Position numbers and translations under genes: made by a program
Part shown: positions 110 to 26,265 of the stretch, piece after piece
Position numbering within the stretch: position 1 is the stretch's first letter
Layout: the number at the start of each line of letters is the position of its first letter
Notes under the pieces: generated by a model
Database searches by the model: none
What the model was told of the DNA's origin: nothing
Seen by the model: the letters and a program-made list of their open reading frames with translations, nothing else
Origin: Patescibacteria group bacterium
GTDB lineage: Bacteria > Patescibacteriota > Patescibacteriia > JBBTXB01
DNA length: 30,729 nt
Reading direction: 5' to 3'
Assembly (NCBI GenBank): GCA_038062475.1
Contig: JBBTXB010000127.1
Coordinates: 1-30,729, forward strand

Positions 110-151
110 GCGGCCTAATACGCCAATACGTTAGAGAACAAGGTCAAGAGG

Positions 152-1432: not shown

Positions 1433-1436
1433 AATG

Positions 1437-1500
1437 TCATGAAACATGAAACGCAAATCAGTCCTTAAACGAATGCTTCATGTTACGTGTTTCATGTTTT
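1437..1500. repeat. Inverted heptamer-array hairpin, CATGAAA family, small copy
   Basis: Left arm CATGAAA CATGAAA; right arm GCTTCAT GTTACGT GTTTCAT GTTTTAT. CATGAAACA (1438-1446) pairs with TGTTTCATG (1488-1496). Lies between the ftsI stop and the murF start. Confidence 0.7.
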
Positions 1501-3283: not shown

Positions 3284-4542
3284 TGTTGAAAATACTTTCT
3301 TCCCTTTAAGCCGGGCGGCAAGTAGTCCTGCTCCACCGACTCCTCGTGGTCGGGATTGTACCGGTAGCCGGCCCCGTAGCCGAGTTCCTTCATGAGCGCT
3401 GTAGACGCATTGCGGAGATGAAGCGGAACGGGTTCATTCGGACACTCGCGGAGATCATTCTTCACTTCCCCATAGGCGCGGTAGAGAGCGTTGGATTTTG
3501 GAGCGCGGGCAAGGTATGCCACCGCTTGAGCCAAATTCACGGAGCATTCGGGCATGCCTACGCAGTGCGCCGCATGGTAGGCCGCAACCGCCTGGGGAAG
3601 CGCCTGCGGGTCGGCAAGTCCGATGTCTTCAGAGGCGAAGCGAATGAGCCGCCGAGCAACATAGAGCGGGTCCTCACCCGCCTCCAGCATCCGCCCCAAC
3701 CAGTAGAGTGCCGCATCGGCATCCGAGCCGCGCATGGACTTGTGGAGCGCAGAGATGATGTTGTAATGCTCGGCTCCGGCGCGGTCGTACCGGAGGGTGC
3801 GTTTCTGGAGGGCGTCAGAGAGCGTTTTCTTCTCTAATTGTATCACCCCGGATGCGTTCGGAGGAGTGGCGGCGACCGCGAGCTCCAGCGCAGAAAGGGC
3901 GACCCGGGCATCCCCATCAGCAACCGAGGCGAGGAAATCTTCCGCCTCCGCCGAAAGAACGACGGCTTGTCCACCAAGACCGTGCTCGGAGTCCACGAGC
4001 GCACGGCGAATAATCTGCCGCAAAGCATCGGGAGAAAGCAGCGCTAGGGTAAAAACGCGCGCGCGGGAGAGGAGCGCTGAGTTTACTTCAAAAGACGGGT
4101 TCTCCGTCGTCGCGCCGATCAAAGTGATGCGCCCGTCTTCCACATACGGAAGGAGTGCGTCCTGCTGCGACTTATTCCAGCGGTGAATCTCGTCCAAAAA
4201 GAGGATGGTGCGCGTTCCGCGCATCTTCCGCCGCTCCTCCGCATCCTGGAGAATCGTCCGCAGCTCCGCCAGGCCGCCGGCGACTGCCGAGAGCTGCACG
4301 AACGCCGAACTGGTCATGCGGGCAATGATGCGGGCGAGCGTCGTCTTGCCCGTTCCGGGCGGTCCCCAGAGAATCATTGACGGCGGCTCACCGCGAAGAA
4401 GAAGCGTCCGCAGGAGGGAGCCGGGGGCGGTAAGCGCGTCCTGTCCCACGAAATCTTCCAGAGCCGTCGGCCGCATCCGGTCGGCAAGCGGCGCCTCCCG
4501 CGCCAGGGTCTTCTTCAGTTGATAATCAAACATGTCAGACAT
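3280..4542 (-). CDS. rarA: Replication-associated recombination protein A (RarA/MgsA AAA+ ATPase)
   Basis: Walker A GPPGTGKTTLA, Walker B ILFLDEIHR, and a C-terminal MgsA-type segment HYNIISALHKSMRGSDADAALYWLGRML. Confidence 0.9.
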   Translation of the reverse strand: MSDMFDYQLKKTLAREAPLADRMRPTALEDFVGQDALTAPGSLLRTLLLRGEPPSMILWGPPGTGKTTLARIIARMTSSAFVQLSAVAGGLAELRTILQDAEERRKMRGTRTILFLDEIHRWNKSQQDALLPYVEDGRITLIGATTENPSFEVNSALLSRARVFTLALLSPDALRQIIRRALVDSEHGLGGQAVVLSAEAEDFLASVADGDARVALSALELAVAATPPNASGVIQLEKKTLSDALQKRTLRYDRAGAEHYNIISALHKSMRGSDADAALYWLGRMLEAGEDPLYVARRLIRFASEDIGLADPQALPQAVAAYHAAHCVGMPECSVNLAQAVAYLARAPKSNALYRAYGEVKNDLRECPNEPVPLHLRNASTALMKELGYGAGYRYNPDHEESVEQDYLPPGLKGRKYFQQ

Positions 4543-4544
4543 AA

Positions 4545-4686
4545 GTCACGGAGCATGAAGCATTCATTCATTCATGGTTCGACTTCGCTCACCATCCTGA
4601 GCCTGTCGAAGGAAGGAATGCGCTCCGCGCCTTGTACTTATATGTTCCGTGTTTTGTGTTCCGTGTTCCATGCTTTGTGTTCCATG
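4545..4686. repeat. Composite intergenic element: 77-bp conserved core (4554-4630) plus a six-unit heptamer array (4644-4685)
   Basis: The core CATGAAGCATTCATTCA..TGGTTCGACTTCGCTCACCATCCTGAGCCTGTCGAAGGAAGGAATGCGCTCCGCGC recurs at 6842-6914. The array reads GTTCCGT GTTTTGT GTTCCGT GTTCCAT GCTTTGT GTTCCAT. Confidence 0.85.
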
Positions 4687-4728
4687 TCGGCAGGGGCATT
4701 GTAATCGGAAGCCCGTCTCTCGTACAAT

Positions 4729-4806
4729 GAGACTGTAGAAAAACGTTTTTATTCCCTGAGCTTGTCGATTCGCCTCGGGCGAATTCGGTCATTTTTTTAC
4801 AGTCTC
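4729..4806. mobile_element. MITE-like element with about 15-bp terminal inverted repeats (GAGACTGTAGAAAAA ... TTTTTTTACAGTCTC)
   Basis: The inverted repeats are read directly. The interior carries a CCTGAGCTTGTCGA half-core (4755-4768) and the hairpin ATTCGCC-TCG-GGCGAAT. A 40-bp homologue lies in the opposite orientation at 19980-20019. Confidence 0.6.
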
Positions 4807-4836
4807 ACAATAGAACGCAGCACGCGAGGAGAACCC

Positions 4837-4956
4837 ATGCGACCAAACGAACCCGGCATCGGCACCGGCCTCATCATCCCCACGATTGCCCTCATCGCCA
4901 TGCTTGTGGTGCTTGATACGATTCTCGGCCCGTTTCTCACGAAGGGCTGCTACTAG
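4837..4956 (+). CDS. Small (39 aa) single-pass membrane protein, hypothetical
   Basis: AGGAG lies 5 nt upstream of the ATG at 4837. Product MRPNEPGIGTGLIIPTIALIAMLVVLDTILGPFLTKGCY has one hydrophobic helix. An intrinsic terminator follows at 4965-4990. Confidence 0.5.
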   Translation: MRPNEPGIGTGLIIPTIALIAMLVVLDTILGPFLTKGCY

Positions 4957-4964
4957 ACGCCGTT

Positions 4965-4990
4965 GCCCTGAACATATTCGGGGCTTTTTT
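4965..4990 (+). terminator. Rho-independent terminator
   Basis: Hairpin GCCCTGAA-CATA-TTCGGGGC followed by TTTTTT. Confidence 0.6.
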
Positions 4991-4993
4991 ATG

Positions 4994-5029
4994 AAAAAAC
5001 ACACCCAAACGAGTTGGGGTGTGTTTTTT
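4994..5029. terminator. Bidirectional intrinsic terminator ending the minus-strand tRNA array
   Basis: AAAAAA, then stem CACACCC/GGGTGTG, then TTTTTT. Lies immediately 3' of the tRNA cluster on the minus strand. Confidence 0.7.
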
Positions 5030-5055
5030 CGGGGCGATCCCGCCGTGGCGGGACG
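5030..5055 (-). pseudogene. Orphan fragment of a tRNA-like 3' end (variant T-arm plus acceptor strand)
   Basis: The minus strand reads GTCCCGCCACGGCGGGATCGCCCCG. This nearly matches the 3' 25 nt of the variant tRNA-like genes at 5188-5259 and 5525-5596. Confidence 0.6.
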
Positions 5056-5089
5056 ATTCGGCACGTCATGGCTCACTTTCGTCAAATAA

Positions 5090-5161
5090 TCGGGGCGACA
5101 GGATTTGAACCTGCGGCCTCACGGTCCCGAACCGTGCGCGCTACCGCTGCGCCACGCCCCG
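5090..5161 (-). tRNA. tRNA-Pro (anticodon CGG), canonical
   Basis: Manual fold: CGGGGCG-TG-GCGC-AGCGGTA-GCGC-G-CACGG-TTCGGGA-CCGTG-AGGCC-GCAGG-TTCAAAT-CCTGT-CGCCCCG-A. It is 72 nt, with a canonical T-loop and no encoded CCA. Confidence 0.9.
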
Positions 5162-5259
5162 ATTATTTGACGAATTTTCAATGTTTGTCGGGGCGATCCC
5201 GCGTGGCGGGACGGCCTCTCGATCCCGAACCGAGCGCACTACCGCTGTGCTACGCCCCG
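5142..5259. repeat. 118-bp direct repeat, copy 1 (partner 5479-5596, one mismatch)
   Basis: Aligned by eye. On the minus strand it covers a whole variant tRNA-like gene, a 27-nt spacer and the first 20 nt of tRNA-Pro. Confidence 0.9.
5188..5259 (-). tRNA. tRNA-Pro(CGG)-like gene with a non-canonical T-arm (possible pseudo-tRNA or tRNA-like element), copy A
   Basis: The acceptor, D-arm and anticodon arm (loop TTCGGGA) fold normally. The T-arm is GTCCC-GCCACGC-GGGAT, which lacks the TTC(R)A T-loop and can instead form a 6-bp stem with a 3-nt loop. Confidence 0.45.
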
Positions 5260-5478
5260 ACCACGATACGAACATTATAATCGGTTTTGCCGAACATGGT
5301 GCCGCCCGTCTTGCCGGTTCGGACTGAAGCAGTTCAGTCCTCACTCCGGCTCGACCCCACTCACCGTGCGCGCTTCGGCGTTGTCCTCGCAGAGCGAGGA
5401 TTACTGCAAATAATCTGTCGCCGGAGGGCGACACCTTGCGCCGCCTGCCGCCCGGTGTCCGCCGAAAGCGGACCGGCA
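5260..5478 (-). ncRNA. Candidate structured RNA of 219 nt bracketed by tRNA-like modules
   Basis: No credible ORF. At least four strong local hairpins: 5321-5340, 5384-5400, 5416-5433 (tetraloop) and 5457-5473. It is flanked by the 118-bp repeats. Strand is assumed from co-orientation with the tRNAs. Confidence 0.3.
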
Positions 5479-5498
5479 TACCGCTGCGCCACGCCCCG
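5479..5498 (-). pseudogene. Orphan 5' fragment (20 nt) of tRNA-Pro
   Basis: The minus strand reads CGGGGCGTGGCGCAGCGGTA, identical to the first 20 nt of the canonical tRNA-Pro, then diverges. Confidence 0.7.
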
Positions 5499-5524
5499 AT
5501 TATTTGACGAATTTTCAATGTTTG

Positions 5525-5596
5525 TCGGGGCGATCCCGCGTGGCGGGACGGCCTCTCGGTCCCGAACCGAGCGCACTACCGCTGTGCTACGCCCCG
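5525..5596 (-). tRNA. tRNA-Pro(CGG)-like gene with a non-canonical T-arm, copy B
   Basis: Same fold as copy A, with a fully paired anticodon stem CTCGG/CCGAG. The T-arm is GTCCC-GCCACGC-GGGAT. Confidence 0.45.
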
Positions 5597-5725
5597 GCCA
5601 GGGGATGAATTCTTTAAATGATCTCTCGCCAAACATCGCGCCGCCCGTCTCACCGAACGTACTGTCGCCGCGCCATACGGATATTAACAAAGCCGATTGT
5701 TGCACAGAATAACCGATTTCCGATT

Positions 5726-5772
5726 AAAAGAAAAGCCCACCTAAATCCGCCTTGAGGCAGACTTGGGCGGGC
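5726..5772 (-). terminator. Rho-independent terminator after the 48-aa gene
   Basis: On the minus strand: stem GCCCGCC ... GGTGGGC (one G-U pair) followed by TTTTCTTTT. Confidence 0.55.
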
Positions 5773-5779
5773 AACCGGA

Positions 5780-5926
5780 TCACTTCTTGGCGTCCACGTT
5801 GACACCGAGCTTCTGGCGGAGCTTCACGAGGCGCTCGGGGCGCTTGGGGTTCACCGTCCAGAAGCACCAGCCGAAGAAAAAAAGCGCGGGAATGATAACT
5901 GCCAAGCGATACAGAACCTCTTTCAT
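5780..5926 (-). CDS. Small (48 aa) membrane protein, hypothetical. Below the ORF-track length cutoff.
   Basis: Hand translation: MKEVLYRLAVIIPALFFFGWCFWTVNPKRPERLVKLRQKLGVNVDAKK. It has one TM helix, starts 15 nt after the upstream gene's stop, and is followed by a terminator. The SD is weak. Confidence 0.45.
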   Translation of the reverse strand: MKEVLYRLAVIIPALFFFGWCFWTVNPKRPERLVKLRQKLGVNVDAKK

Positions 5927-5941
5927 GGCAACCTACGTTGC

Positions 5942-6184
5942 TCAAATTTCAATCTGCTCAATCATGAGCCCCGCTTCTATCGCGTGCTCCTGAACCTCGA
6001 ATTCGTGCGCAGCGGCGATCTCGAGGTTCCCCATCATCTCGCCGACGAAGCGCTCACGCGCACGCATCATCGCGTCGGCATCCGATCGCGCCGAGTGCAC
6101 TATGGCGACCATGTACTTGGGATCGGCAGTCGGCAGCGGTTCGTGGTACCAACGGTATACGAACAGACGCAGCTTGCTATCCAT
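5942..6184 (-). CDS. Hypothetical protein (80 aa)
   Basis: The ORF runs 5942..6235. I prefer the internal ATG at 6184 (MDSKLRLFVY...), which is preceded by GGAGAGGAG. The longer form would overlap the cobO-like stop. Confidence 0.5.
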   Translation of the reverse strand: MDSKLRLFVYRWYHEPLPTADPKYMVAIVHSARSDADAMMRARERFVGEMMGNLEIAAAHEFEVQEHAIEAGLMIEQIEI

Positions 6185-6234
6185 GCAATTCTCCTCTCCA
6201 TGAAGCGCAACGTCCAACCATACCCCGTTTCGCA

Positions 6235-6816
6235 TTAAAAGTCAATCCCCTCGCGAGCGCGGATGCCTTTGTAAAAATAGTGTTTTACGAGCTTCATTTC
6301 AGTCACCAAATCGGCCTCGTTCAAAATTTCATCCGGCGCGCGGCGTCCGGTTACGATAACCTCAATATCCTTTGGGCGCGAGCGCAGAAGCGCGAGCGCG
6401 CTCCGCAGGGGTAGCATCCCCAATGAAACGGTCGTATTTAACTCATCCAAAATGATGAGGTTGTACTTTTTATTCGTCAAAAATTTCTTCGCCGCGGCAA
6501 GCCCACGACGCGCTTCTCTCTTGTCAGCCAGAGTCACGCCGAAACGAAAGCGGCCGGTAGTCGGATCAATCCGATCCAGTCCGGTCGCCACATAATCAAC
6601 CCGGCCGGTTGGTTTCGGAGGTTTGTACGAACCGTATACAGCGGAGAGGAACGGCCCTCCTTTGACTGCCTCTAAAAAGCGGCGTTCGGAATAATGCGTG
6701 CCGCCTTTGTCAAAATAAACAATGGCGACGCGCCCACCGGAGGCGGCAGCGCGAACCGCGGCGCCAAGCGCGGCGGTCGTCTTGCCTTTCCCATCACCCG
6801 TATAAACCTGAAGCAT
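6235..6816 (-). CDS. cobO: Cob(I)alamin/cob(I)yrinic acid a,c-diamide adenosyltransferase (CobA/CobO/BtuR family)
   Basis: Motifs VYTGDGKGKTTAALG (P-loop), LIILDELN and IVTGRRAPDEILNEADLVTEM...GIRAREGIDF. The first 13 residues of the track ORF are encoded by the heptamer repeat element, so the start is set to the ATG at 6816. Confidence 0.8.
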   Translation of the reverse strand: MLQVYTGDGKGKTTAALGAAVRAAASGGRVAIVYFDKGGTHYSERRFLEAVKGGPFLSAVYGSYKPPKPTGRVDYVATGLDRIDPTTGRFRFGVTLADKREARRGLAAAKKFLTNKKYNLIILDELNTTVSLGMLPLRSALALLRSRPKDIEVIVTGRRAPDEILNEADLVTEMKLVKHYFYKGIRAREGIDF

Positions 6817-6820
6817 ATAA

Positions 6821-6955
6821 CATGAAACATGGAGCACGTAACATGAAGCATTCATTCATGGTTCGACTTCGCTCACCATCCTGAGCATGTCGAAGGAAGG
6901 AGTGCGCTCCGCGCTTCGCACTCAATGTTCCATGCTTCAAGTTTCATGCTTCATG
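6821..6955. repeat. Inverted heptamer-array element of the CATGAAA family, with a 73-bp conserved core (6842-6914)
   Basis: Left arm CATGAAA CATGGAG CACGTAA CATGAAG; right arm GTTCCAT GCTTCAA GTTTCAT GCTTCAT. The core is shared with 4554-4630 and contains the hairpin TTCGAC-ttc-GCTCA-ccatcc-TGAGC-at-GTCGAA. Confidence 0.85.
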
Positions 6956-6959
6956 ACAA

Positions 6960-9356
6960 TTAGCCACACTTAGAGTATCCACAACTGTGGCAGGTCATGC
7001 ACCCTTCGGCAACCGCCAACACCGCGCTGCATTCCGGGCACTGTGGTGCAAAACCGGTATTCGCAATGCTCCTAACCCGTACCATTGCGGGAACATTTGA
7101 TTCCGGCGCAAGCCCTACTGCCGGATGGGCGTCATATGCAGCCATTTTTAGCACTTCCGCCTCGGGCAGTATATTCATGCCGGTTTCAATTTTCGGAGCG
7201 GCGTCAAGCGGCAATGTCGCCTGCGGGACGCGGGTGTGCTCCTCCAGAATCTGCGCGATCCCGTCCGGAATGGATAGCACCATGCCACGCGAGGTCCACG
7301 AAGGCATCGGGCCGCGAATGCCTTTCAGCTGGTCAATCACTTCGGTAACCGAGATGCCTGAACGGAGCGCAAGAGAGATGAGTCGGCAAATTGCCTCCGA
7401 TTTGGCCGCAAAAAAGCCGCCTGTTTTTCCGATCGTCGCAAATACTTCAAAGGGTCGTGCTTCTTCATCGTCGTTTACGGTTACATACAGCGTCCCGTAG
7501 CCGGTCGTAATTTTGTATGTCTTGCCGGTGGTGACCGCCGGACGCGTCCGCGGAGTAATGCCATCGAAAGAAGCGGTGGCAGTGCCTGCGACGGGAGCAT
7601 CGGCGGATCTATTTGCGATTTGTCCAGACGCTTCGGTCGGGATCCCGCTTCGCGGTGACGATTCGCCATTTGCTTTCTTATCCTGGGCATCTTTGGAGTA
7701 CAGAACGGAAACATCACGGGAGTTCTCGCGGAAATAGGTTACTCCTTTACAGCCAAGCTCGTACGCCTTTTCATACAGCGTCGCGACCTGCTCCGCCGTG
7801 TGCTCCTCCGGGGCGTTCACGGTTTTGGAAATAGAGGAATCCACAAACTCTTGAATTGCCGCCTGTGTGGCGACGTGCTCATCGGGCGTGAGTTGCTTCG
7901 CGTTCACGAAATAATCCGGAACGGCCTCCCCCGGATGCGCATCCAACCATTCCTTGTAGAGCGGGTGGTGCACTTCATGCTCGCCGATTCTGTCCTTGCG
8001 GATAAAAACGAAGTCGTATACCGGTTCAATCCCCGAACTTACGCCAGAAAGAAGCGATGTCGTTCCGGTCGGCGCTTGGGTCAAGAGCACTGCGTTCCGG
8101 ATTCCATAGCGGCCGATCGCCGCCTGCAAAACTGCGGGGAGCTGCCGAATAAAGTACCCTTGGAGGTATTTTTCGGGATCAAACTTGGGGAACGGCCCCT
8201 TCTCTTTGGAGACCTCAACGGATGCCCGGTACGCTTCGTCGCGGATGAATCGGTACACTTCACGCACCAAGGCGAGCGCTTCCGGTGAGCTGTAACGCAA
8301 TTTCAATTTAATGAGAAGGTCTCCGAGGCCCATGGCGGAGAGGCCGGTGCGGCGGATATTCATCTGCGCCTCGCGGTTCTGCGGGAATGGGTATCCCGTC
8401 ACTTCAATTACGTTGTCCAGAAATCGGACGGCGGTGCGCACCGCCCAGCCGAGCCGTTCGTAATCCACGCGGTCGTCTTTTGCGAACGCCGCCAGATTGA
8501 TCGCACCCAGGTTGCAGACGGACCAAGCGCCGAGCGGCTGTTCGCCACAAGGATTTGTCGAGATGAGGTTTTCAAAATACCATGTGTTCCCCTGCTTGTT
8601 CGCCCGCTCCATGAAGTACAACCCCGGCTCGCCAGAAGCCCACGCCGACTCACAAATCAGGTTCCACAGATACCGCGCCTGTATCGTCTTATAGACCGTG
8701 CCATTCCACTGCAAATCCCAATCGGCGTCATTTTTGACCGCCTCCATAAGGCGATCGGAGATGCACACGGAAAGGTTCGCGTTGGTGACGAGCCCCATTG
8801 CGCGCTTCACGGTAACGAATTCTTCAATGTCCGGGTGGTCATCATTCAACATGAGCATCAAAGCGCCGCGGCGAGATCCACCTTGGATGATGAGACCCGT
8901 TGCGTATGAATAGAGGCCACCGAAGGAAACGGCTCCGGAGGCCGTGCCGTTCACGCCTTTCACACGAGCCCCGCGAGGGCGGAGTGTGGACAGGTTCACG
9001 CCGACTCCACCCGACCGAGACATAATCTCCACCATGGTTTTCACGGATTCAAAAATTCCGCCGCGGCTGTCCTCCGGTGAAGGAATCACAAAACAGTTGT
9101 AAAATGTGAGATCGTAGCCGCTTCCTGCGCCGGAAAGGATGCGGCCTCCCGGCACAAATTGGAACCCGTCCAAGACGCGGTAAAACTCGTCGGCCCAAAA
9201 CGCCCGCTTCTCCTCCGTCGGCTCCGCCGCAGCAATGGCAGTTGCCACGCGTTTCCACATCTCTTCCGGCGTGTGTTCCAACTGATTTCCTTCGCGGTCG
9301 CGGAGCGCGTAACGATCTTCAAAAACTTTGAGACGGAGGCCGTCGAGTGTGTACAT
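6960..9356 (-). CDS. nrdJ: Class II (adenosylcobalamin-dependent) ribonucleotide reductase
   Basis: 798 aa. Contains FYNCFV, NPCGEQPL and TGTTS motifs and a C-terminal Cys cluster (CPECS...CMTCHSCGYSKCG). A low-complexity insert lies at about residues 555-600. Adjacent to a cobalamin adenosyltransferase. Confidence 0.85.
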   Translation of the reverse strand: MYTLDGLRLKVFEDRYALRDREGNQLEHTPEEMWKRVATAIAAAEPTEEKRAFWADEFYRVLDGFQFVPGGRILSGAGSGYDLTFYNCFVIPSPEDSRGGIFESVKTMVEIMSRSGGVGVNLSTLRPRGARVKGVNGTASGAVSFGGLYSYATGLIIQGGSRRGALMLMLNDDHPDIEEFVTVKRAMGLVTNANLSVCISDRLMEAVKNDADWDLQWNGTVYKTIQARYLWNLICESAWASGEPGLYFMERANKQGNTWYFENLISTNPCGEQPLGAWSVCNLGAINLAAFAKDDRVDYERLGWAVRTAVRFLDNVIEVTGYPFPQNREAQMNIRRTGLSAMGLGDLLIKLKLRYSSPEALALVREVYRFIRDEAYRASVEVSKEKGPFPKFDPEKYLQGYFIRQLPAVLQAAIGRYGIRNAVLLTQAPTGTTSLLSGVSSGIEPVYDFVFIRKDRIGEHEVHHPLYKEWLDAHPGEAVPDYFVNAKQLTPDEHVATQAAIQEFVDSSISKTVNAPEEHTAEQVATLYEKAYELGCKGVTYFRENSRDVSVLYSKDAQDKKANGESSPRSGIPTEASGQIANRSADAPVAGTATASFDGITPRTRPAVTTGKTYKITTGYGTLYVTVNDDEEARPFEVFATIGKTGGFFAAKSEAICRLISLALRSGISVTEVIDQLKGIRGPMPSWTSRGMVLSIPDGIAQILEEHTRVPQATLPLDAAPKIETGMNILPEAEVLKMAAYDAHPAVGLAPESNVPAMVRVRSIANTGFAPQCPECSAVLAVAEGCMTCHSCGYSKCG

Positions 9357-14137: not shown

Positions 14138-14145
14138 AAATCGGA

Positions 14146-14212
14146 GAACGTAGAACGTAGAACTTAGAACGTAGACCGATCCTACGTACTACCTTCTACA
14201 TACTACCTACTA
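14146..14212. repeat. Inverted heptamer-array element, GTAGAAC family
   Basis: Reads GAACGTAGAACGTAGAACTTAGAACGTAGAC ... CTACGTACTACCTTCTACATACTACCTAC. The 24-mer at 14151-14174 is the exact reverse complement of 23631-23654. Confidence 0.8.
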
Positions 14213-14225
14213 AGCCCTTCTGCTC

Positions 14226-14444
14226 TCACGCTTCCGCGATATATTCGTCAAAACGCTCGCGTAAAACCCGCTCCAATTCTTCCAGTTCTTCATCATCGTG
14301 CATTTCGCCGACTGCGCGATGCTCCTCAATAACCTCCTCAACAAGGACATCCCACTCATCGTGAGCTGTTACTCCTTGCTCCCTCGCGCGGCGTTCCGCT
14401 TCGCGATACAGCCCTTCGGGGGTATAAGCCAAGTTCTCGGTCAT
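14226..14444 (-). CDS. Small acidic hypothetical protein (72 aa)
   Basis: Clean ORF with a helical, Glu/Asp-rich product. No recognisable motifs. Confidence 0.5.
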   Translation of the reverse strand: MTENLAYTPEGLYREAERRAREQGVTAHDEWDVLVEEVIEEHRAVGEMHDDEELEELERVLRERFDEYIAEA

Positions 14445-14755: not shown

Positions 14756-14786
14756 AAAAAAACCGTCCCAGCTGTTGCCAGGACGG
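14756..14786 (-). terminator. Rho-independent terminator closing the Ubl/E1/E2 cassette
   Basis: On the minus strand: CCGTCC-TGGCAACAGCTG-GGACGG followed by TTTTTTT, about 50 nt after the Ubl stop. Confidence 0.75.
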
Positions 14787-14833
14787 CGCTTGTTGAGTGA
14801 AGGCGTTTCCGCCTTTTGCGAAAGAACTACGAA

Positions 14834-15121
14834 CTACGATCCCTGCGGTCGTTCGGTGACCGTGATGCGCGCTCCCATCGAGATGGGGGTCGAGAGGTCG
14901 GTTACCGCTTTCCCGTTGACCGAAACGTCCCGCCGCTCGGAGCTCACGCCCGCCTGCGCGAGCACGTCCTTGACGGTCGCCTCCGCCCCCGCCATGACGA
15001 CCGGCTTCTCCTGCACGTCGCCCTGCGTCGGCACATACGTCACCGTAAGCCGCAGCTCGCTCGGCTTCCGCTTCGCGCCAGTCGTGCCCTTCTTCTTCTG
15101 ACCCTTCTTCTTCGCTCCCAT
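14834..15121 (-). CDS. Ubiquitin-like beta-grasp protein (ThiS/MoaD-like, 95 aa) with a Lys-rich N-terminal tail and a C-terminal ...RPQGS
   Basis: AAGGAGG lies 7 nt upstream of the ATG at 15121. The tail is MGAKKKGQKKKGTTGAKRKP. The core LRLTVTYV...ATVKDVLAQAGV...DVSVNGKAV...GARITVTERPQGS follows the ThiS/MoaD strand-helix pattern. Starts 13 nt downstream of the E1-like gene. Confidence 0.65.
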   Translation of the reverse strand: MGAKKKGQKKKGTTGAKRKPSELRLTVTYVPTQGDVQEKPVVMAGAEATVKDVLAQAGVSSERRDVSVNGKAVTDLSTPISMGARITVTERPQGS

Positions 15122-15134
15122 GCTCTTCCTCCTT

Positions 15135-15788
15135 CTACGGGGTGATGACCCGCGGCTTGTGTGCGGAGTACGCGAAGTTGAATTGCTTTGCGCCTTCCGT
15201 CCACCAGCCCGCAACGACAGCGCACGCCGCAGCTGCCGCTACCGTTGCAACATACACGATTCCATGATTGCCGCAAGTCGGCCGAAGCGCCTTGCTTCCG
15301 GGGTACAGAAGCTTCTCGTAATCGGCAACGTCATCCGGGTCGTTCGGATTCACCGCAAGGTTACGTACGAACTCGCCCGCAACTCTCGTGTCAACGAGAA
15401 GATCAACGGCCAAATTAATCTTTACCTGTTTCCAGATGAGCATCCGCGCTTCCATGGAGTCCACGCAGGCGATGACAGTGCCCCGAAGCGGCTCTCCTGT
15501 ATACATCGCGCGGATCGCGTTGATTTCAAGACCGCTCTGCTCGCGAACGATCTCCGCAAGCGCCTCCACCTTGTAGCGACCCTGGTCTTTGAGGCGATAG
15601 GCGCTCATGGGAACATTGTGGGATTCAACGGCGTCTCTGTCGTAGACGGTGATCTTTGAGACCCCCATTTTCGGGAGCATGGTGACGACGAAGCTCCCGA
15701 CAGAACCCGCGCCGATCACCGTAACCGGTCGGGCGACCGTTCGATTGAAGATGCGTTGCTGCTGCGAGAAATTGAGTTCAGATTCCAT
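15135..15788 (-). CDS. Minimal ThiF/MoeB/E1-like adenylyltransferase (217 aa)
   Basis: Motifs VTVIGAGSVGS (GxGxxG), VYDRDAVESHN, GRYKVEAL, IACVDS and RPTCGNHG. No CxxC zinc motif or rhodanese module. Only a 3-nt gap to the upstream gene. Confidence 0.75.
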   Translation of the reverse strand: MESELNFSQQQRIFNRTVARPVTVIGAGSVGSFVVTMLPKMGVSKITVYDRDAVESHNVPMSAYRLKDQGRYKVEALAEIVREQSGLEINAIRAMYTGEPLRGTVIACVDSMEARMLIWKQVKINLAVDLLVDTRVAGEFVRNLAVNPNDPDDVADYEKLLYPGSKALRPTCGNHGIVYVATVAAAAACAVVAGWWTEGAKQFNFAYSAHKPRVITP

Positions 15789-15791
15789 TGG

Positions 15792-17246
15792 CTAGACAAC
15801 CTCCACGCCGGGAACAACCGGCCACTCTTCAATCCTCGCCTCCGCAAGCTCCGGAGAGTAGCCGGTCTTCAACCAGCGGATCACGAGTGCGAAGCATTCG
15901 GAGTACCGGGATTCGCCTGCCAGTTTCGCGACAAGAGCCGTGGCGTTCCCGAAACAGGCGACGCCGCTTCTCCCGATATGCGGGTGGTGCAAGCCGTCAG
16001 GGTGCGTCGGCGCCTCGCTCCAGACAGTAACCGCTCCCGTGCCTCCGATGCGAATGACGAAGGCGCCCAATGCGTAGCGTTGCCCTTCCCACTCCGCCTC
16101 AATGGGGCGGGTCTCTACCTGCAGTCCCCCGTCCAGAATCCACACACGCGCCACATCCGGCTGTTTTTTTATCTGTTGGTACTCCCGCGGAAGGCGCGCC
16201 GCGAGCTCTGTGCGAAATGGGGACTTTTCGTATGTGTCAACCAGCGCCTTCAACCGATTCCTTTGTTGGATGGCCTCCGTGAGAAGCTTCTGGAACTCGG
16301 CGATATTGCGGATAGCCGCGGCCTCCTCTCCCCGAACGACTTTCACCAGGGAATCCGCCCACTCCCCAACCGCCTCCACGAACTCTGTCTTCCCGACGCT
16401 CTTGTACCCCGCGGGGTACTTGTGCCCCTCGGGGTACTTGTGCCCCTCGGGGTACTTGTGCCCCTCGGGGTACTTGTGCCCCTCGGGGTGCTTGCGATGC
16501 CAGTTCCATGCCAGGGCGAGGAGGCGTTCAAAAATGATGGGGCTGTGGCTATGGAAGTACGGAATGGTCGGCACAAGGAAATAGAAGTTCGATCCGAGCG
16601 CTTGTACGAGCGGGACTCCCGTTGCATCGGCGAGCGCCTCGCCTCGCCCTCGCGCGGGACCCACCGCACTCACCATGGAGCAGTCCTCCAGAATCGGCTG
16701 GCCGAAAGCGGTGGCGACAGTGCGGAATTCGGACTCGCCGGGCGGCCTACAATTGGAGAAGATGTGTATCTCGCCTTCCTTTTCGGGGTACGGATCACAC
16801 ACATCGGCTCCATAATGGAAGTGGACGCGCGCGCCGGAAAGGCACGAGAAGCGTTCTAATATTTTCTGATGCGTCGCAAGCGCATGGTCTGTCTTCTTCG
16901 TCTTGGGAAGAGAGACCGCGAGGATGTCATGATTCTGGATGACAACTTCGGGCGTTTGCCAGATGAACAACAGCACTTGCTTTTTCTCGCGCTCGGCCGC
17001 GTACATTGCCACCTTCCCGGATGGTAAAAGGGGGTGCGCCCGGCAGTAGATATCCGCGACGCTCTTCCCGCGCTTGGAGGCAAGGAGAAAACCGTCTATG
17101 TCGAAATGGCCGACCTTCAGTACCGCCTTGCGCGGAGCGATCCCCAATGCTCGATATTCCTTGAGCTTCGGCGCCACGATGGCTGCCGGAAGCGCAATCT
17201 CTCCTGTCTTTACAGGCTCTTCTACGATGTCAGTAGCCGAATCCAT
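15792..17246 (-). CDS. Multidomain protein (484 aa): unknown N-domain with two HxH motifs, a (YPEGHK)n repeat, a coiled-coil segment and a C-terminal UBC/E2-like domain
   Basis: GGAGGAGGG lies 5 nt upstream of the ATG. The C-terminal segment LPREYQQIKKQP...YALGAFVIRI...HHPHIGRSGVACFGN...YSECFALVIRWL parallels a UBC core (see findings). Domain assignment is by eye only. Confidence 0.6.
   Translation of the reverse strand: MDSATDIVEEPVKTGEIALPAAIVAPKLKEYRALGIAPRKAVLKVGHFDIDGFLLASKRGKSVADIYCRAHPLLPSGKVAMYAAEREKKQVLLFIWQTPEVVIQNHDILAVSLPKTKKTDHALATHQKILERFSCLSGARVHFHYGADVCDPYPEKEGEIHIFSNCRPPGESEFRTVATAFGQPILEDCSMVSAVGPARGRGEALADATGVPLVQALGSNFYFLVPTIPYFHSHSPIIFERLLALAWNWHRKHPEGHKYPEGHKYPEGHKYPEGHKYPAGYKSVGKTEFVEAVGEWADSLVKVVRGEEAAAIRNIAEFQKLLTEAIQQRNRLKALVDTYEKSPFRTELAARLPREYQQIKKQPDVARVWILDGGLQVETRPIEAEWEGQRYALGAFVIRIGGTGAVTVWSEAPTHPDGLHHPHIGRSGVACFGNATALVAKLAGESRYSECFALVIRWLKTGYSPELAEARIEEWPVVPGVEVV
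16413..16484. repeat. Perfect 18-bp tandem repeat x4 (GGGGTACTTGTGCCCCTC) inside the E2-like gene
   Basis: Read directly. Degenerate units flank it (about 16401-16497). It encodes in-frame YPEGHK hexapeptides. Confidence 0.95.
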
Positions 17247-17271: not shown

Positions 17272-17300
17272 ATTGTAAAAGTACAAAACCGGCCTGCCAT
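17272..17300 (-). promoter_or_regulatory. Candidate sigma70-type promoter of the Ubl/E1/E2 cassette
   Basis: On the minus strand: -35 ATGGCA, a 17-nt spacer, then -10 TACAAT, about 25 nt upstream of the start codon. Confidence 0.3.
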
Positions 17301-17478
17301 CCATAGCGACAGACGGGGCCAAAAAACTTAACACGGAAAGACGCGCGGGGTCAACCCCGTTAGAAGCAAAAGGTAGTCTGTGGTTTACGCAGACGAAAGC
17401 CGCAAGACGCGCTCCGCTCATCGTTTTGCAGGATGACGCGAGTCTTCTTTGGCTTCTAACGGGGTCAACCTCGGGCTC

Positions 17479-17676
17479 GAGACCGCTGAAAAACTCTCTG
17501 TTAACCCCTGAGCTTGTCGAAGGGCTGACAGAACTAAGTCAAAGTTTGCCCTTCGACTTCGCTCAGGGAATATCTTCACTTCGTTACGATGCCGCCTCTC
17601 CTCGCTCGGAAACGAAGTGCGACTTCGCTTCACTCGCTCGTCAGGCGATAAATTTTGGCAGTTTTTCAGCGGTCTC
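17479..17676. mobile_element. MITE-like element (198 bp) with perfect 17-bp terminal inverted repeats GAGACCGCTGAAAAACT / AGTTTTTCAGCGGTCTC
   Basis: The repeats are read directly. The interior carries CCTGAGCTTGTCGAAGG (17507-17523) and CCCTTCGACTTCGCTCAGGG (17549-17568). The right repeat supplies the last codons and the stop of the 206-aa gene. Confidence 0.7.
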
Positions 17677-18286
17677 CCCGTTTCCACGCCGTGATTTCCC
17701 CGGCGCGGATTTCTATGGGGTCCGCGCGGCGGAGCGTGCGCAGTTGCGCGCGGGAGAGGATCGGGACGTGCGGCACTCCATCAATGTATTCGGGGACATA
17801 CCACACGTCTTCAACGGATGTCATCCACCCGCGCCGATCAAAGCGGGAGAGGTCAACCGGTTGCGAGTATGAACGGAGTGTCTTTTTGCCGTTCTTTAAA
17901 AAATATTCGTGGAAAAACGAAAGCGCCAGCTCGCGGATGGATGCGTAGATCGGCTCGCGGTAGCGCAACACAGCATGGTTTGTTTTGGTAATCGCGCCCC
18001 ATGCTCCGTGCTGCCGGAACACGGCGATCACATGATCGTCGTCTTCGTCCGCGGCCTTGAGGTCAACAACGAGCGGCCGATGCCCCAGGAGCCGAAGAGC
18101 CGCCGCCGCGAGCATCGCCCCTTCCATGCAATGGGCGCGGCGACGCGCGAGCACTGTTCGCGGCGACAGGCATGTTTCTCTCCCTTTCTCAAAATTTATC
18201 GGAATCCTCTCCAAAAAATCCTGAATCTTCCGCGGCGTATTGAGCGCCCCAAGAATCTTCAACTCATCTCTCGTAAATCCGTACAT
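17666..18286 (-). CDS. Transglutaminase-like / papain-fold cysteine peptidase superfamily protein (206 aa)
   Basis: Cys motif RRAHCMEGAMLAAAALRLLG, followed by DDDHVIAVF and GAWGAITKTN (candidate His and Asp/Asn). Starts 16 nt downstream of the membrane protein gene. Confidence 0.5.
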   Translation of the reverse strand: MYGFTRDELKILGALNTPRKIQDFLERIPINFEKGRETCLSPRTVLARRRAHCMEGAMLAAAALRLLGHRPLVVDLKAADEDDDHVIAVFRQHGAWGAITKTNHAVLRYREPIYASIRELALSFFHEYFLKNGKKTLRSYSQPVDLSRFDRRGWMTSVEDVWYVPEYIDGVPHVPILSRAQLRTLRRADPIEIRAGEITAWKRGDR

Positions 18287-22204: not shown

Positions 22205-23035
22205 TCACGGCCTGTACCCCGCGCCTGTTGGTGCCACCAGAATCGCCCAGCCAGCTTCCCCACTGCGGCATGGCTCCTGCGGCGGCGCTTCTGCGCGAGA
22301 TGGATGCACTGCAAGAAGAAAAAACGCGGCGATGACGACAAGACTCGCTCCGAACGCTTTCGGGGTCAAGGTTACAGGGATCAACCCCCGCCCGGCAAGG
22401 AACGAAATACGGGTCTCCAGAACCTTACAGTCCGCAAAAGGCGCCAGCACAGGGATTCCAGAATGGCGCGTTCCCGATAATTTATACAAGGCGCTCGCGA
22501 GAACCAGCTTTCCTTGCCCGCGTCGCATGGCTTCCGCGTCCGCGGAGACCTCTTTTGCCACTTCGTGGCGCCTCTCGAGGTAATGCACGACGGGGATAAA
22601 AAACAAAGCGTTTTTCAATGCGCGGAGGAACGCAGAGCGCAGCGGGTCCCACTTTCTCAAATGGTGGTACTCGTGAGCCAGAACCGCGACGAGCTCCTCG
22701 CGGGAGAGTGCCTGCAGCGCGCCGCGAGAAATGTACATGCGCGGACGCAGAAGCCCCGCGCAAAAACAGAGCAAATCCGCAGAATCAATGACAGAGACCA
22801 TCTTCTCCTGAATCTCAAGTTCGGCAAGCGCGCTCCGAAGCGTCTCCGTGGCATCCCGATCGCGATCGGGACGGAGCAAACGCATGAAGACCCGGGTCGC
22901 CGCATACTGACGAATGACCGAGAAGATAAACGCGAGAAAAACAGCCAAGCCGATCCCGGTGACAAGCAGGTGCCGGGGATTCACTACAAAACCCAGAATT
23001 GATGTGCAGGCGGTGAGGAATGGCATAAAGGTCAC
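22205..23035 (-). CDS. BlaR1/MecR1-type M56 family zinc metallopeptidase (sensor-transducer-like, no obvious sensor domain)
   Basis: HExxH in VLAHEYHHLRKWDP, with multiple TM helices. Lies downstream of a BlaI-family repressor. The start is GTG at 23035 or ATG at 23026. Confidence 0.7.
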   Translation of the reverse strand: MTFMPFLTACTSILGFVVNPRHLLVTGIGLAVFLAFIFSVIRQYAATRVFMRLLRPDRDRDATETLRSALAELEIQEKMVSVIDSADLLCFCAGLLRPRMYISRGALQALSREELVAVLAHEYHHLRKWDPLRSAFLRALKNALFFIPVVHYLERRHEVAKEVSADAEAMRRGQGKLVLASALYKLSGTRHSGIPVLAPFADCKVLETRISFLAGRGLIPVTLTPKAFGASLVVIAAFFLLAVHPSRAEAPPQEPCRSGEAGWAILVAPTGAGYRP

Positions 23036-23045
23036 CTCAAAACTG

Positions 23046-23132
23046 CCAAAATTTAGTTCCTGAGCTTGTCGAAGGACTAAATCTTGGCGCAGTTAATGGA
23101 GTGGCCTTCGACTTCGCTTCGCTTCGCTCAGG
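23046..23132. repeat. CCTGAGC/TCGAAGG-core repeat element inserted between blaI and the M56 gene
   Basis: Reads CCAAAATTTAGTTCCTGAGCTTGTCGAAGGACTAAATCTTGG ... CCTTCGACTTCGCTTCGCTTCGCTCAGG. Its core is shared with 19357-19400. Confidence 0.75.
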
Positions 23133-23164
23133 CAATAACGCGTTTTTAGATGGCCTCATAGTAA

Positions 23165-23557
23165 CTATTCCTCCCGCGCCTTTAATTCTCGGATGAGCTT
23201 CTTCAACTTCGTGCGGCCGGCTTTCTCGGCTTCATCCACAAAACAGGCAATGGCGACATCCCCGAATTCTTTTCGGATCCGCGCGAGCATCGTGCCCGCC
23301 AAAGACCGATACAGTTCCTCCTGCGAATACCGCGTCTTGTATGCATGCGGCTGACGGGATTCGTCACGAATAAGGAGTCCCTTTGCAGTGAGCCGACCCA
23401 TGATCGTCATCACTGTGGTGTAGGCAAGATTACGTTCTCTCTGCAGAACGTCAACAACATTGCGAATAGTGAGACTCTCGCCACTTCTCCAGAGGACTTG
23501 CATCACCTCATGTTCCAGTTCACCGAGAAGACGACCAAAATTTGATGGTGTGCGCAT
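23165..23557 (-). CDS. BlaI/MecI/CopY family winged-helix transcriptional repressor
   Basis: LEHEVMQVLW...TIRNVVDVL...AYTTVMTIMGRLTAKGLL...AYKT matches the penicillinase-repressor family pattern. Confidence 0.8.
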   Translation of the reverse strand: MRTPSNFGRLLGELEHEVMQVLWRSGESLTIRNVVDVLQRERNLAYTTVMTIMGRLTAKGLLIRDESRQPHAYKTRYSQEELYRSLAGTMLARIRKEFGDVAIACFVDEAEKAGRTKLKKLIRELKAREE

Positions 23558-24915: not shown

Positions 24916-26265
24916 TCAAGTTGAATGGCCAATAGATGCGCCGATTATGATCCCCGCCTCTGCTGCAAAGCCAGCCGGGACTTCGAGAACTGCATCCACC
25001 GGCTCGGGCGAGGTGCGTTGTGTTGGCGATTCCCCTGCCGCCGGCGCTGGAACATTCGCGTCAATGCCGATCACCACGCCGTCACGGATCCAGATAATAT
25101 CAATGGGGAAACGCATGTCCTTCATCCAAAAAGTCCGCACCTCGGCGCGGGAAAATCGAAACAGCATACCTCTCCCCTCGGGGAGGATGTCTCTGCCAGA
25201 GAGTCCGCGCATCCACTCCTGCGGCCGATCGGCGAGCTCCGCGGCAATGCGGTTGCCATGGAGTTCAATCTCAACGGTTTCTTTCCCCAACCCCGGGATA
25301 TGCTCGCGCGTCTGGAAAAATAGTCCGAGTGCGCCGAAAAATGCGGCGGTAATCCAGAGAAGCAGCACCGCCCTCCGGTGAGAAAATCCGGCGTCAAGCA
25401 AACGGAAATGAATGTGCTCACGATCCCCGCGAGCGAGCGGCCGGCGGCGTGCAATGCGCCGTGAAATGACCCAAGCGACATCAAAAACCGGCACGGCCAT
25501 GACGAGAATCGTCGTTGCCACTTTGCTGCCGGAGATAACCGCAAGAACGCCTAAAAAAAATCCGGCAAACAAACTGCCGCTCTCGCCGAGAAAAATTCGC
25601 GCAGGGTGAAAATTCCACGGCAAGAATCCGACAAGCGCTCCGGCAAAAATCGCCGCCAGGAGCGCCGTCTCCGGTTGGTTAATGTGCGGGAGCATGGCGA
25701 CATAGACGATCATGCCCGCGCCGATCGCCGTCATTCCCGTAACCAGCCCGTCAAGGCCGTCCAAGAGCTTCGTCGTATACATCATCCCGAGGAGCCACAG
25801 GAACGTAATCGCGTCAGCAGGAAGCGTGAGTGCACCGACCTTCCAGAGATCAAAACGAATGTCTCCGCCAAAAGGGTTCCCGATGAAATCAATGCCGACC
25901 CCGCTTGCGACGGCGATTCCAGCCGCGAGAATCGGAAAAATAATCTGGCGGGACGGTCGCAACCGATAACGGTCATCCAAAAATCCGCCGAGGAGCAGCA
26001 CGGCGGAAGCGAGCGCGAGGCCCGCGAGCCGTTCGCGCGTAATGGCACCGGCAGGAAGGAATTCCGTCGCGATAATGAGAAGCGCAACGGTTACAAAAAC
26101 ACTGCCAATCACGGCCGCTCCGCCAAAAAGCGGCGTCGGCTTCCGGTGTTGCTTGCGCGATTCATCGGGAATATCCAAAAGACGCGCCCGTTTGGCAAGG
26201 CGCGCGACTAGTGGAGTCATGGCCGCCGCGAGCGCGGCGGAAATCAGAAACGCGGAAAGCAACAT
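24916..26265 (-). CDS. Fusion protein: polyprenyl-phosphate N-acetylhexosamine-1-phosphate transferase (MraY/WecA family) plus a C-terminal DUF192 domain
   Basis: N-terminal part: about 10 TM helices, FLDDRY and KLLDGLDGLVTG motifs. C-terminal part: GLSGR...GMLFRF...FWMKDMRFPIDIIWI...AVLEVPAGF, typical of DUF192. Confidence 0.7.
   Translation of the reverse strand: MLLSAFLISAALAAAMTPLVARLAKRARLLDIPDESRKQHRKPTPLFGGAAVIGSVFVTVALLIIATEFLPAGAITRERLAGLALASAVLLLGGFLDDRYRLRPSRQIIFPILAAGIAVASGVGIDFIGNPFGGDIRFDLWKVGALTLPADAITFLWLLGMMYTTKLLDGLDGLVTGMTAIGAGMIVYVAMLPHINQPETALLAAIFAGALVGFLPWNFHPARIFLGESGSLFAGFFLGVLAVISGSKVATTILVMAVPVFDVAWVISRRIARRRPLARGDREHIHFRLLDAGFSHRRAVLLLWITAAFFGALGLFFQTREHIPGLGKETVEIELHGNRIAAELADRPQEWMRGLSGRDILPEGRGMLFRFSRAEVRTFWMKDMRFPIDIIWIRDGVVIGIDANVPAPAAGESPTQRTSPEPVDAVLEVPAGFAAEAGIIIGASIGHST

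Follow-up and report, generated by a model that had tools for sequence, protein, structure and literature searches.

An E2-like protein with a eukaryotic-type HPH-x7-Cys loop is encoded with a ThiF-type E1 and a ubiquitin-like protein in a three-gene operon of Patescibacteria

We analyzed a 30,729-nucleotide stretch of DNA from a Patescibacteria group bacterium (GenBank assembly GCA_038062475.1, contig JBBTXB010000127.1, positions 1 to 30,729), referred to here as the window. On its minus strand lies a compact three-gene operon encoding a 484-amino-acid (aa) protein that resembles ubiquitin-conjugating (UBC) E2 enzymes, a ThiF-type E1, and a small ubiquitin-like protein (Ubl; Table 1). The E1 gene starts 3 nt past the open reading frame (ORF) of the E2-like protein, and the Ubl ORF follows 13 nt past the E1 gene.

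Table 1. Coordinates of the operon, its protein domains and its flanking signals in the window (HMM, hidden Markov model; pLDDT, predicted local distance difference test score).
Feature	Position	Strand	Basis
Upstream region with sigma-70-like promoter match (17300..17272)	17272..17366	-	Sequence match
Block conserved with L001, GGGGTTGACCC...TAAGTT	17324..17366	-	Comparison with L001
First gene of the operon, with its stop codon; encodes the 484-aa E2-like protein	15792..17246	-	ORF, profile family
N-terminal alpha/beta domain, residues 1-252	16491..17246	-	Conservation, AlphaFold2
Tandem repeat of an 18-nt unit (5.2 copies) that encodes (PEGHKY)n within the disordered linker at residues about 253-285	16401..16494	-	Tandem Repeats Finder, pLDDT < 50
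Long helix, residues 286-341, running on into helix 343-360	16224..16391	-	AlphaFold2 secondary structure
C-terminal UBC/E2-like domain, residues 343-484	15795..16220	-	AlphaFold2 pLDDT about 90-98, Foldseek, PDB HMM, hhalign
HPHIGRSGVAC, HPN-like motif and putative catalytic Cys431 (codon 15954..15956)	15954..15986	-	Translation, invariance, E2 register
217-aa single-domain ThiF/MoeB-type E1 adenylyltransferase; Cys172 codon 15273..15275	15135..15788	-	Pfam ThiF 8.2e-18
95-aa Ubl (SAMP2/ThiS-type beta-grasp), Lys-rich N-terminal tail, ending ...ERPQGS	14834..15121	-	Profile, Pfam, orthologues
Ubl C-terminal residues: Gly94 14840..14842, Ser95 14837..14839	14837..14842	-	Translation; gene callers also give 95 aa
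Intrinsic-terminator-like hairpin, 11-bp stem, 7 GC pairs, then T-run; closes three-gene operon	14762..14787	-	Hairpin prediction

An initial annotation, made from the sequence alone, had pointed to an E2-type catalytic signature in the 484-aa protein and had located it correctly: the minus strand at 15954..15986 translates to HPHIGRSGVAC, which forms residues 421-431. The bare HP[HN]-x7-C motif is weak evidence by itself. The pattern arose in 209 of 200,000 residue shuffles of the 484-aa protein (about 1e-3), and six-frame translation of the window revealed a second copy, HPHDCPHRHAC, at 4875..4907 (+) in a gene-less frame. This chance copy, just upstream of a tRNA cluster in an ORF-poor region, serves as a control. 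Because the motif arises by chance, the finding rests on conservation, fold and context.

A profile search run exhaustively over 1.84 billion representatives of clusters at 50% identity identified at least 1,659 family members (E ≤ 1e-3), 171 of them with E ≤ 1e-30; most of the family are 440-530 aa long and align end to end with the query. This search was needed to reveal the family, as a word-indexed search returned 4 relatives (34-43% identity, with H421, P422, H423 and C431 invariant among them) and, when run with the domain alignment, 6. The word-indexed protein search also missed a near-identical 478-aa product (locus L017), its word filter probably swamped by the repeat and coiled-coil segments. 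For conservation we used a diverse set of 113 homologues, 20-40% identical to the query. Only H421, H423, C431, G433 and Y463 are invariant in all 113, so that the three residues whose conservation the initial annotation had proposed to check (His421, His423 and Cys431) are all among them. P422 is kept in 112 of the 113 and, with N434, H415, W409, W458, L459, G462, W475 and P476, belongs to the positions that are at least 90% conserved. Nothing relevant to the 484-aa protein was found in Pfam, PADLOC, NCBIfam or PHROGs, nor in the PDB by phmmer, and we found no description of the family in the open-access literature searched, which is not proof of absence.

An AlphaFold2 model built with the 113-sequence alignment reached a mean pLDDT of 89.7 and was used in place of a model from a 5-sequence alignment, which was unusable (pLDDT 52). 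The C-terminal domain is predicted to run from a helix (residues 343-360) through a beta-meander (365-410) and an active-site loop (411-432) to two helices (433-444 and 448-461) and a conserved EEWP tail, a predicted layout that agrees with the UBC fold (N-terminal helix, four-stranded antiparallel meander, C-terminal helices). Foldseek comparison with 350,542 PDB chains agrees with this assignment, the ten best matches all being E2s, UbcH7/UBE2L3 and UbcH8/UBE2L6 (probability up to 0.99, E = 0.01-0.1, about 125-155 aligned columns, TM(target) 0.33-0.48). The E-values are modest because the query was the whole 484-residue multidomain protein. Lower-ranked PDB matches include the E2-variant FTS, an RWD-type ribosome-associated protein, and Atg10. 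The structure prediction suggested in the initial annotation therefore came out in favor of an E2 fold.

The same holds for the profile comparison suggested there. With residues 340-484 cut from the 113-sequence alignment as the query, hhalign against ten canonical E2s gave Prob 83%, P = 9.1e-6 and a score of 37.3 over 84 columns; 30 column-shuffled E2 profiles and a reversed profile scored 16.6 or less (P ≥ 0.05). Of the ten E2 sequences, those of UBE2D2 and UBE2W were checked and are identical to PDB entries 1ur6_A and 2mt6_A. In this alignment the N-terminal helices correspond, G-x-R-Y-x-L-G-x-F-x-I-R falls on P-Y-x-G-G-x-F-x-L, HPH on HPN and Cys431 on Cys85, which is the active-site register that had been claimed. 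Two of the three flanking parallels claimed along with it appear in the local profile-profile alignment, where ELAARLPREYQQIKKQP aligns with the UBE2D2 N-terminal helix MALKRIHKELNDLARDPP, and GQRYALGAFVIRI with SPYQGGVFFLTIHF; the third, of YSECFALVIRWL with the post-Cys helix, appears in global mode only and at low confidence.

We also built an HMM from 30 isolated C-terminal domains, including one from a phage (see below), and searched it against 177,635 distinct PDB sequences. E2s made up 40 of the 41 matches at E ≤ 10. The best match, to UBE2L3 (E = 0.039), is ungapped over 85 columns and stops at the catalytic Cys, setting ...HPNIDEKGQVC against ...HPHigksgvpC. Isolating the domain was required for this result, as a full-length profile drew nothing but coiled-coil noise from the PDB. 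Cys431 lies in the loop after strand 4, about 8 residues past the tripeptide, and falls on Cys85/86 of UBE2D2 and UBE2L3. Neither the Foldseek nor the HMM list contains a solved bacterial E2 (Cap2, BilB or Bub), whose presence in our PDB copy is assumed; on that assumption, the domain is by these measures nearer to the canonical UBC core than the Cap2, BilB and Bub E2s are. With high confidence, we take the C-terminal domain to be homologous to E2-fold proteins and Cys431 to occupy the catalytic position.

The gene order E2-like protein, ThiF protein (215-223 aa) and small protein (71-95 aa) is found in 10 of the 10 loci with enough flanking sequence (the window, L001, L002, L004, L006, L007, L008-10, L012, L013-14 and L015); the E2-like proteins of these loci match the family profile at E-values down to about 1e-40. 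The Pfam ThiF match of the window's E1 lies above its cut-off, and the best NCBIfam matches are ThiF adenylyltransferases, with all specific equivalogs below their cut-offs. Alignment of 11 E1s revealed the hallmarks of the ThiF/MoeB/E1 family, with invariant ATP-binding glycines (G-x-G), the Mg-binding Asp, and invariant VD.M..R and D.R motifs. One Cys, Cys172 (...RPTCGNHG...), is likewise invariant, and none of the 11 proteins has CxxC zinc motifs. Profile matches identify the third gene product as a beta-grasp protein: the small-protein profile matches PF1061 (1rws; 4.3e-6) and SAMP2 (5lda_B; 9.1e-6) in the PDB, and 2 of 7 small proteins match Pfam SAMP2 (4.4e-6 in a homologue). Most of these Ubls have a Lys-rich N-terminal tail (MGAKKKGQKKKGTTGAKRKP in the window). 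A JAB peptidase or other deubiquitinase is present in the cassette of none of the 10 loci.

The remainder of the E2-like protein comprises an N-terminal domain, a disordered linker and a long helix. The N-terminal domain conserves P168, G170, G200, R201, G202, D207, Q215 and Y222; it has no sequence relative in the PDB, and its Foldseek matches are weak and glutamine-amidotransferase-like (probability 0.23 or less). We considered this domain as a candidate for the missing Ubl-processing peptidase and rejected it, as it has no conserved nucleophile and no hydrolase-like Cys/Ser/His set. The long helix is, judging from the model, probably a coiled coil or stalk that joins the N-terminal domain to the E2 domain. 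The (PEGHKY)n repeat in the linker is lineage-specific, being absent from homologues, and its copy number varies within one groundwater population, with 5 units in the window and 4 in L017, whose 478-aa product also carries a Y339H change. In another locus, L016, gene callers split the gene into a 195-aa fragment because an assembly gap of Ns falls within the repeat.

Based on these data, we propose that the 484-aa protein is probably the E2 of a self-contained three-gene Ubl-modification operon (E2-like protein, E1 and Ubl) in Patescibacteria (candidate phyla radiation, CPR). That its C-terminal domain acts as a thioester-forming Ubl-conjugating enzyme, a chemistry we infer from sequence, is also probable. 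What we show is the E2 homology and fold, the register and invariance of the motif residues, the linkage to E1 and Ubl genes, and the limits of the operon. In the proposed mechanism, the ThiF-type E1 would bind the 95-aa Ubl, adenylate its C-terminal carboxylate, and capture the activated Ubl as a thioester on Cys172. The Ubl would then be handed by transthioesterification to Cys431 within the UBC-fold domain's HPH-x7-C loop, in which His421, Pro422 and His423 would have the loop-shaping part that HPN plays in eukaryotic E2s, and would finally be discharged by aminolysis onto an amine of a target protein. Because no E3 is encoded, we ascribe target choice to the E2-like protein itself, whose N-terminal alpha/beta domain and helical stalk most likely supply target choice and/or dimerization. 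The E2 of the Bil system has also been proposed to choose its own targets (PMC10557695). Removal of the terminal Ser of the Ubl may precede activation; counted from the C-terminus, R-P-Q-G-S matches R-L-R-G-G of ubiquitin, and a Ser at the place of Gly76 would instead allow direct activation.

Several observations weigh against this assignment. Each PDB HMM match is by itself marginal (E about 0.04). In Pfam, 60 full-length family members gave no UBC or Prok-E2 match at E ≤ 0.01 and hit coiled-coil models sporadically, while 30 isolated C-terminal domains gave, at E ≤ 10, one Prok-E2_D match (E = 0.12) and none to UQ_con. In the HPN motif, the His and Pro are (near-)invariant and the Asn is replaced by an invariant His423, and the near-invariant His415 could, with H421, H423 and C431, instead form a metal site. 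All 10 Ubls end in E-R-x-x-G-S directly before the stop codon and not in Gly-Gly, and the conserved cassette contains in none of the 10 loci a peptidase to expose the Ubl Gly. Bil Ubls ending in Gly-Ala are adenylated only after JAB trimming (PMC10557695).

The His at the third motif position is compatible with E2 activity, because the active human E2 UBE2W carries HPHVYSNGHIC, the same HPH-x7-C as the E2-like protein. UBE2W is specialized for N-terminal alpha-amines, and extending that specificity to the bacterial family by analogy would be speculation. The family does not reach the gathering thresholds of Pfam UQ_con (PF00179) or of Prok-E2_A to Prok-E2_E. Because no member reaches any Pfam UBC or Prok-E2 model, the relationship that the sequence comparisons indicate is superfamily-level homology to E2s, not membership of UQ_con or another curated family.

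The E2-E1-Ubl operon is widespread in Patescibacteria/CPR and sits among core genes. Core genes that share one strand of the window encode a Mur ligase, PBP2, MgsA, a class II ribonucleotide reductase, IMPDH, a ClpB-type chaperone and an MraY-like protein, and GC content is uniform at about 56% across the window. The population represented by the window is also present in Hainich groundwater assemblies. Elsewhere the cassette lies between ftsA and ftsZ (L007), among aminoacyl-tRNA synthetase genes and dnaJ (L015), and beside ligA/gatCA and pilin genes (L013). Around the cassette loci we found no defense-island signature. A related-locus search with the 5-sequence alignment returned one genome locus, in a 'Candidatus Binatia' metagenome-assembled genome, and one phage locus; the family member in the Binatia genome shows that the family is not confined to CPR.

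In a related organism (L001), the cassette occupies the same position (136..2488, corresponding to 14834..17246 of the window), and the promoter block is conserved. The flanking 72-aa protein and glycoside hydrolase are 98.6% and 85% identical between the two, whereas identity within the cassette is 42% for the E2-like protein, 58% for the E1 and 45% for the Ubl. To judge from these sequence comparisons, divergence confined to the cassette points to allele replacement or swapping, or to diversifying selection.

The E2-like domain is used in several settings. In a 65-kb phage contig (L011, IMGVR_UViG_3300014204_000020, 4387..8269), we identified a 798-aa protein with Cys-rich N- and C-terminal segments that ends in the same HPH-x7-CFGN domain (...MIHPHVGSSGVPCFGN...) and is directly followed by a JAB/MPN+ peptidase (HSH..S..D) and a ThiF-type E1. 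No obvious Ubl gene was identified at this phage locus. A JAB peptidase and an E1 beside the E2 domain form a classic Ubl toolkit, an analogy that supports the E2 reading. The best fold matches in BFVD are unnamed viral proteins of 420-520 aa (probability 1.0). Two short relatives stand alone: P0276 (158 aa; L020, 6001..6477) lies in a toxin-antitoxin island with TacA/TacT, DUF4258 and MqsA that has neither an E1 nor a Ubl, and P0275 (211 aa, with HPH-x6-C spacing; L019, 8001..8636) lies on a 1.17-Mb contig with many unannotated genes, 5 kb from a ThiF gene. A defense role for the CPR cassette is possible.

Different chemistry would be implied if the operon were a sulfur relay, in which the E1 makes a Ubl thiocarboxylate (as for ThiS, MoaD and TtuB) and Cys431 is a persulfide or sulfur-transfer site. 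A minimal ThiF/MoeB-type E1 with ThiF adenylyltransferases as its best NCBIfam matches, a small protein matching the ThiS and SAMP2 families (some of them dual sulfur carriers), a housekeeping context and the lack of a deubiquitinase would all suit such a relay. However, known sulfur-carrier pathways do without an E2-fold protein (PMC10557695), and here the partner has a UBC fold with an HPN-like motif and a Cys in the exact E2 register. The carrier, moreover, ends in Gly-Ser and not in the sulfur-carrier Gly-Gly, and the conserved cassette contains no sulfurtransferase, rhodanese, PP-loop, thiazole or molybdopterin genes; we consider a sulfur relay improbable. We give about as little credence to a non-catalytic E2-fold adaptor, in which His415, His421, His423 and Cys431 (H-x5-H-x-H-x7-C) would chelate Zn or another metal and the domain would be a UEV/RWD-type scaffold binding the Ubl or E1 while conjugation proceeds independently of an E2. 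Three (near-)invariant His and one Cys within 17 residues are suggestive of a metal site, non-catalytic E2-fold proteins exist (FTS and RWD proteins being among our weaker fold matches), and the SAMP2-like character of the Ubl recalls archaeal SAMP conjugation, which needs only an E1. Yet His421, Pro422 and Cys431 each have a counterpart in the catalytic loop of active E2s, among which UBE2W shares the HPH-x7-C; the invariant Cys of the E1 is what a thioester relay would call for; and a metal site would give the conserved Gly433-Asn434 past the Cys no obvious function. There is next to no probability that the resemblance is due to chance in a protein unrelated to E2s. The roughly 1e-3 frequency of the pattern per protein, its spurious copy at 4875..4907 and the lack of a Pfam match would allow for this, and it is refuted by motif residues invariant in 113 of 113 homologues, fold and sequence matches dominated by E2s, the shuffled-profile controls, and E1 and Ubl neighbors in 10 of 10 loci.

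Another alternative keeps the conjugation chemistry proposed above and changes its purpose, from a housekeeping modifier to a conflict or anti-phage role like that of Bil. Divergence that leaves flanks at 85-99% identity and the cassette at 42%, 58% and 45% between the window and L001 is a signature of diversifying selection or allele swapping, although it is known from one genome pair. Relatives of the E2 domain are encoded by a phage, beside a JAB peptidase and E1, and within a toxin-antitoxin island; viral proteins of comparable length head the BFVD fold matches; and all characterized bacterial E1-E2-Ubl operons have been implicated in anti-phage defense (PMC11601596). Set against this, the neighbors in 10 of 10 loci are core genes (ftsA/ftsZ, aminoacyl-tRNA synthetases, ligA/gatCA, dnaJ, IMPDH) and not defense genes, GC content is not atypical, no PADLOC system matches, and there is no regulator such as CapW or CapH/CapP. 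A defense role is thus conceivable but unlikely. Also conceivable but unlikely is that the conjugation operon is a native, vertically maintained protein-modification system with a housekeeping context in Patescibacteria and some other uncultivated bacteria. It would then be a minimal and chemically distinct ubiquitin-like pathway and not an anti-phage module. On this reading no bacterial protein would be closer in sequence to the eukaryotic UBC core than its E2, with HP[N/H]-x7-C in register, and a conserved non-glycine end of the modifier (…E-R-x-x-G-Ser) would be either the site of activation or the starting point of processing, with no dedicated protease or E3.

Compared with eukaryotic UBC-core E2s (UBE2L3/UbcH7, UBE2D and UBE2W), the bacterial domain has the same order of N-terminal helix, antiparallel meander, HP[N/H]-x7-Cys loop and helices, at only about 15% identity. 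The Cys is followed by F-G-N (C-F-G-N) in the bacterial domain and by L-x-I-L (C-L-x-I-L) in eukaryotic E2s, and the bacterial domain has only two helices past the Cys, then the EEWP tail, as well as the extra His415. Unlike eukaryotic E2s, it forms one protein with a 250-aa N-terminal domain and a helical stalk of roughly 75 residues and is encoded in an operon with an E1 and a Ubl. The initial annotation had called so close a match to the eukaryotic motif unusual for a bacterial E2-like protein. This is only a matter of degree, because '6a' bacterial E2-like domains were already reported in 2006 to conserve a His and a Cys that correspond to those of the eukaryotic active site (PMC1779556), and the principle of a bacterial E2-like protein with a eukaryotic-type His and Cys is not new.

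Among bacterial systems, Bil (BilABCD) shares with the Patescibacteria system an operon with separate E1, E2 and Ubl, a Cys-based E1 and E2, no E3, and a Ubl with one extra residue past the reactive Gly (PMC10557695). The two differ in that the Bil E1 is a multidomain IAD-AAD-CYS protein and the Patescibacteria E1 a single 217-aa ThiF domain; Bil always includes a JAB deubiquitinase that trims the Ubl, and the Patescibacteria cassette has none; BilB has a CEHH motif with His after the Cys, and the Patescibacteria E2 an HPH before it; and Bil Ubls are ISG15-like, whereas the Patescibacteria Ubl is a single SAMP2-like beta-grasp (all for Bil, PMC10557695). Bub, or 6E (DUF6527), is another bacterial E1/E2/Ubl conjugation operon outside of CBASS (the cyclic oligonucleotide-based anti-phage signaling system) and Bil. 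Its E1 and E2 work without a catalytic Cys, through Tyr and Ser oxyesters, and it features fusions (Ubl-E2, JAB-E1, E2-E1) and a DUF6527 serine protease (PMC11601596); in the Patescibacteria system both Cys are invariant, and the cassette has neither the fusions nor the protease. The ThiF-type adenylation domain is detectably related to that of type II CBASS (Cap2/Cap3), and PADLOC E1-E2 models match the E1 gene at 1e-12 to 1e-6, over their E1 part only, with no match for the E2-like protein. Type II CBASS comprises an E1-E2 fusion, a CD-NTase (cGAS/DncV-like nucleotidyltransferase) and a JAB protein, and its conjugated substrate is the CD-NTase C-terminus; the Patescibacteria operon has a separate E2 and E1, no CD-NTase, effector or JAB, and a dedicated Ubl. 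The Patescibacteria system thus fails the defining features of Bil, Bub/6E and type II CBASS.

Archaeal sampylation (SAMP2/UbaA) is similar in its modifier, our Ubl profile matching SAMP2 and Pyrococcus furiosus PF1061, and in its small ThiF/MoeB-type E1. It is archaeal, uses no E2, and has SAMPs that end in Gly-Gly, in contrast to a bacterial system that always has an E2 and whose modifier ends in Gly-Ser. The eukaryote-like ubiquitin operon of Caldiarchaeum and Asgard archaea is also prokaryotic and has an E2 resembling the eukaryotic UBC core; it is described (PMC5654768) as encoding genuine ubiquitin along with a multidomain E1, a RING E3 and an Rpn11-like deubiquitinase. That description sets it apart from the Patescibacteria operon, with its SAMP2-like Ubl, minimal E1, and no E3 or deubiquitinase. 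What appears to be new is the combination of the family itself, an architecture of N-terminal domain, stalk and UBC domain, a Gly-Ser modifier, the lack of a peptidase, and abundance in CPR among core genes.

Other features of the window flank the operon or lie further away. Directly upstream of it, a 206-aa ORF (17666..18286, -) has a transglutaminase-like (DUF553) match at E = 0.057 with a Cys...His...Asp-like pattern; as a deubiquitinase of the system it was rejected, since it is not beside the cassette in other loci. Just downstream, a 72-aa highly acidic ORF (14226..14444, -) is identical to its L001 counterpart at 71 of 72 positions and has no family match; conserved only in this closest relative and absent from the other loci, it was rejected as a core component. 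A 7-nt tandem repeat, AGAACGT (4.4 copies, 14145..14175), is intergenic and lies upstream of a 328-aa glycoside-hydrolase-like gene. Three tRNA genes (5090..5596, -) lie in an ORF-poor stretch at 4.5-6.2 kb. At 22205..23557 (-) and 24916..26265 (-), we noted a BlaI-type repressor paired with a BlaR1/M56-M48 peptidase and, separately, an MraY-like glycosyltransferase-4 fused to DUF192. Pfam gives no match for several ORFs, 190-470 aa in length, that lie between 19.9 and 27.8 kb.

Bacterial E1/E2/Ubl conjugation has been an active field only since 2023-2025, with the work on Cap2, Bil and Bub, and to our knowledge all characterized systems are sporadic defense modules with peptidases. The E2-like family described here is set apart from them: it numbers at least 1,659 clusters, goes undetected by Pfam, NCBIfam, PADLOC and PHROGs, lies among core genes of reduced CPR genomes, and comes in operons of three genes only. 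Its eukaryotic-type HP[N/H]-x7-Cys loop is kept closely enough for a plain HMM to find human UBE2L3, and the invariant Gly-Ser end of its modifier poses a concrete biochemical puzzle. If active, the system would be a minimal and tractable model of E3-free E2 catalysis and a data point on the origin of the UBC core before eukaryotes, and would open a way to study protein regulation in organisms about whose biology little is known.

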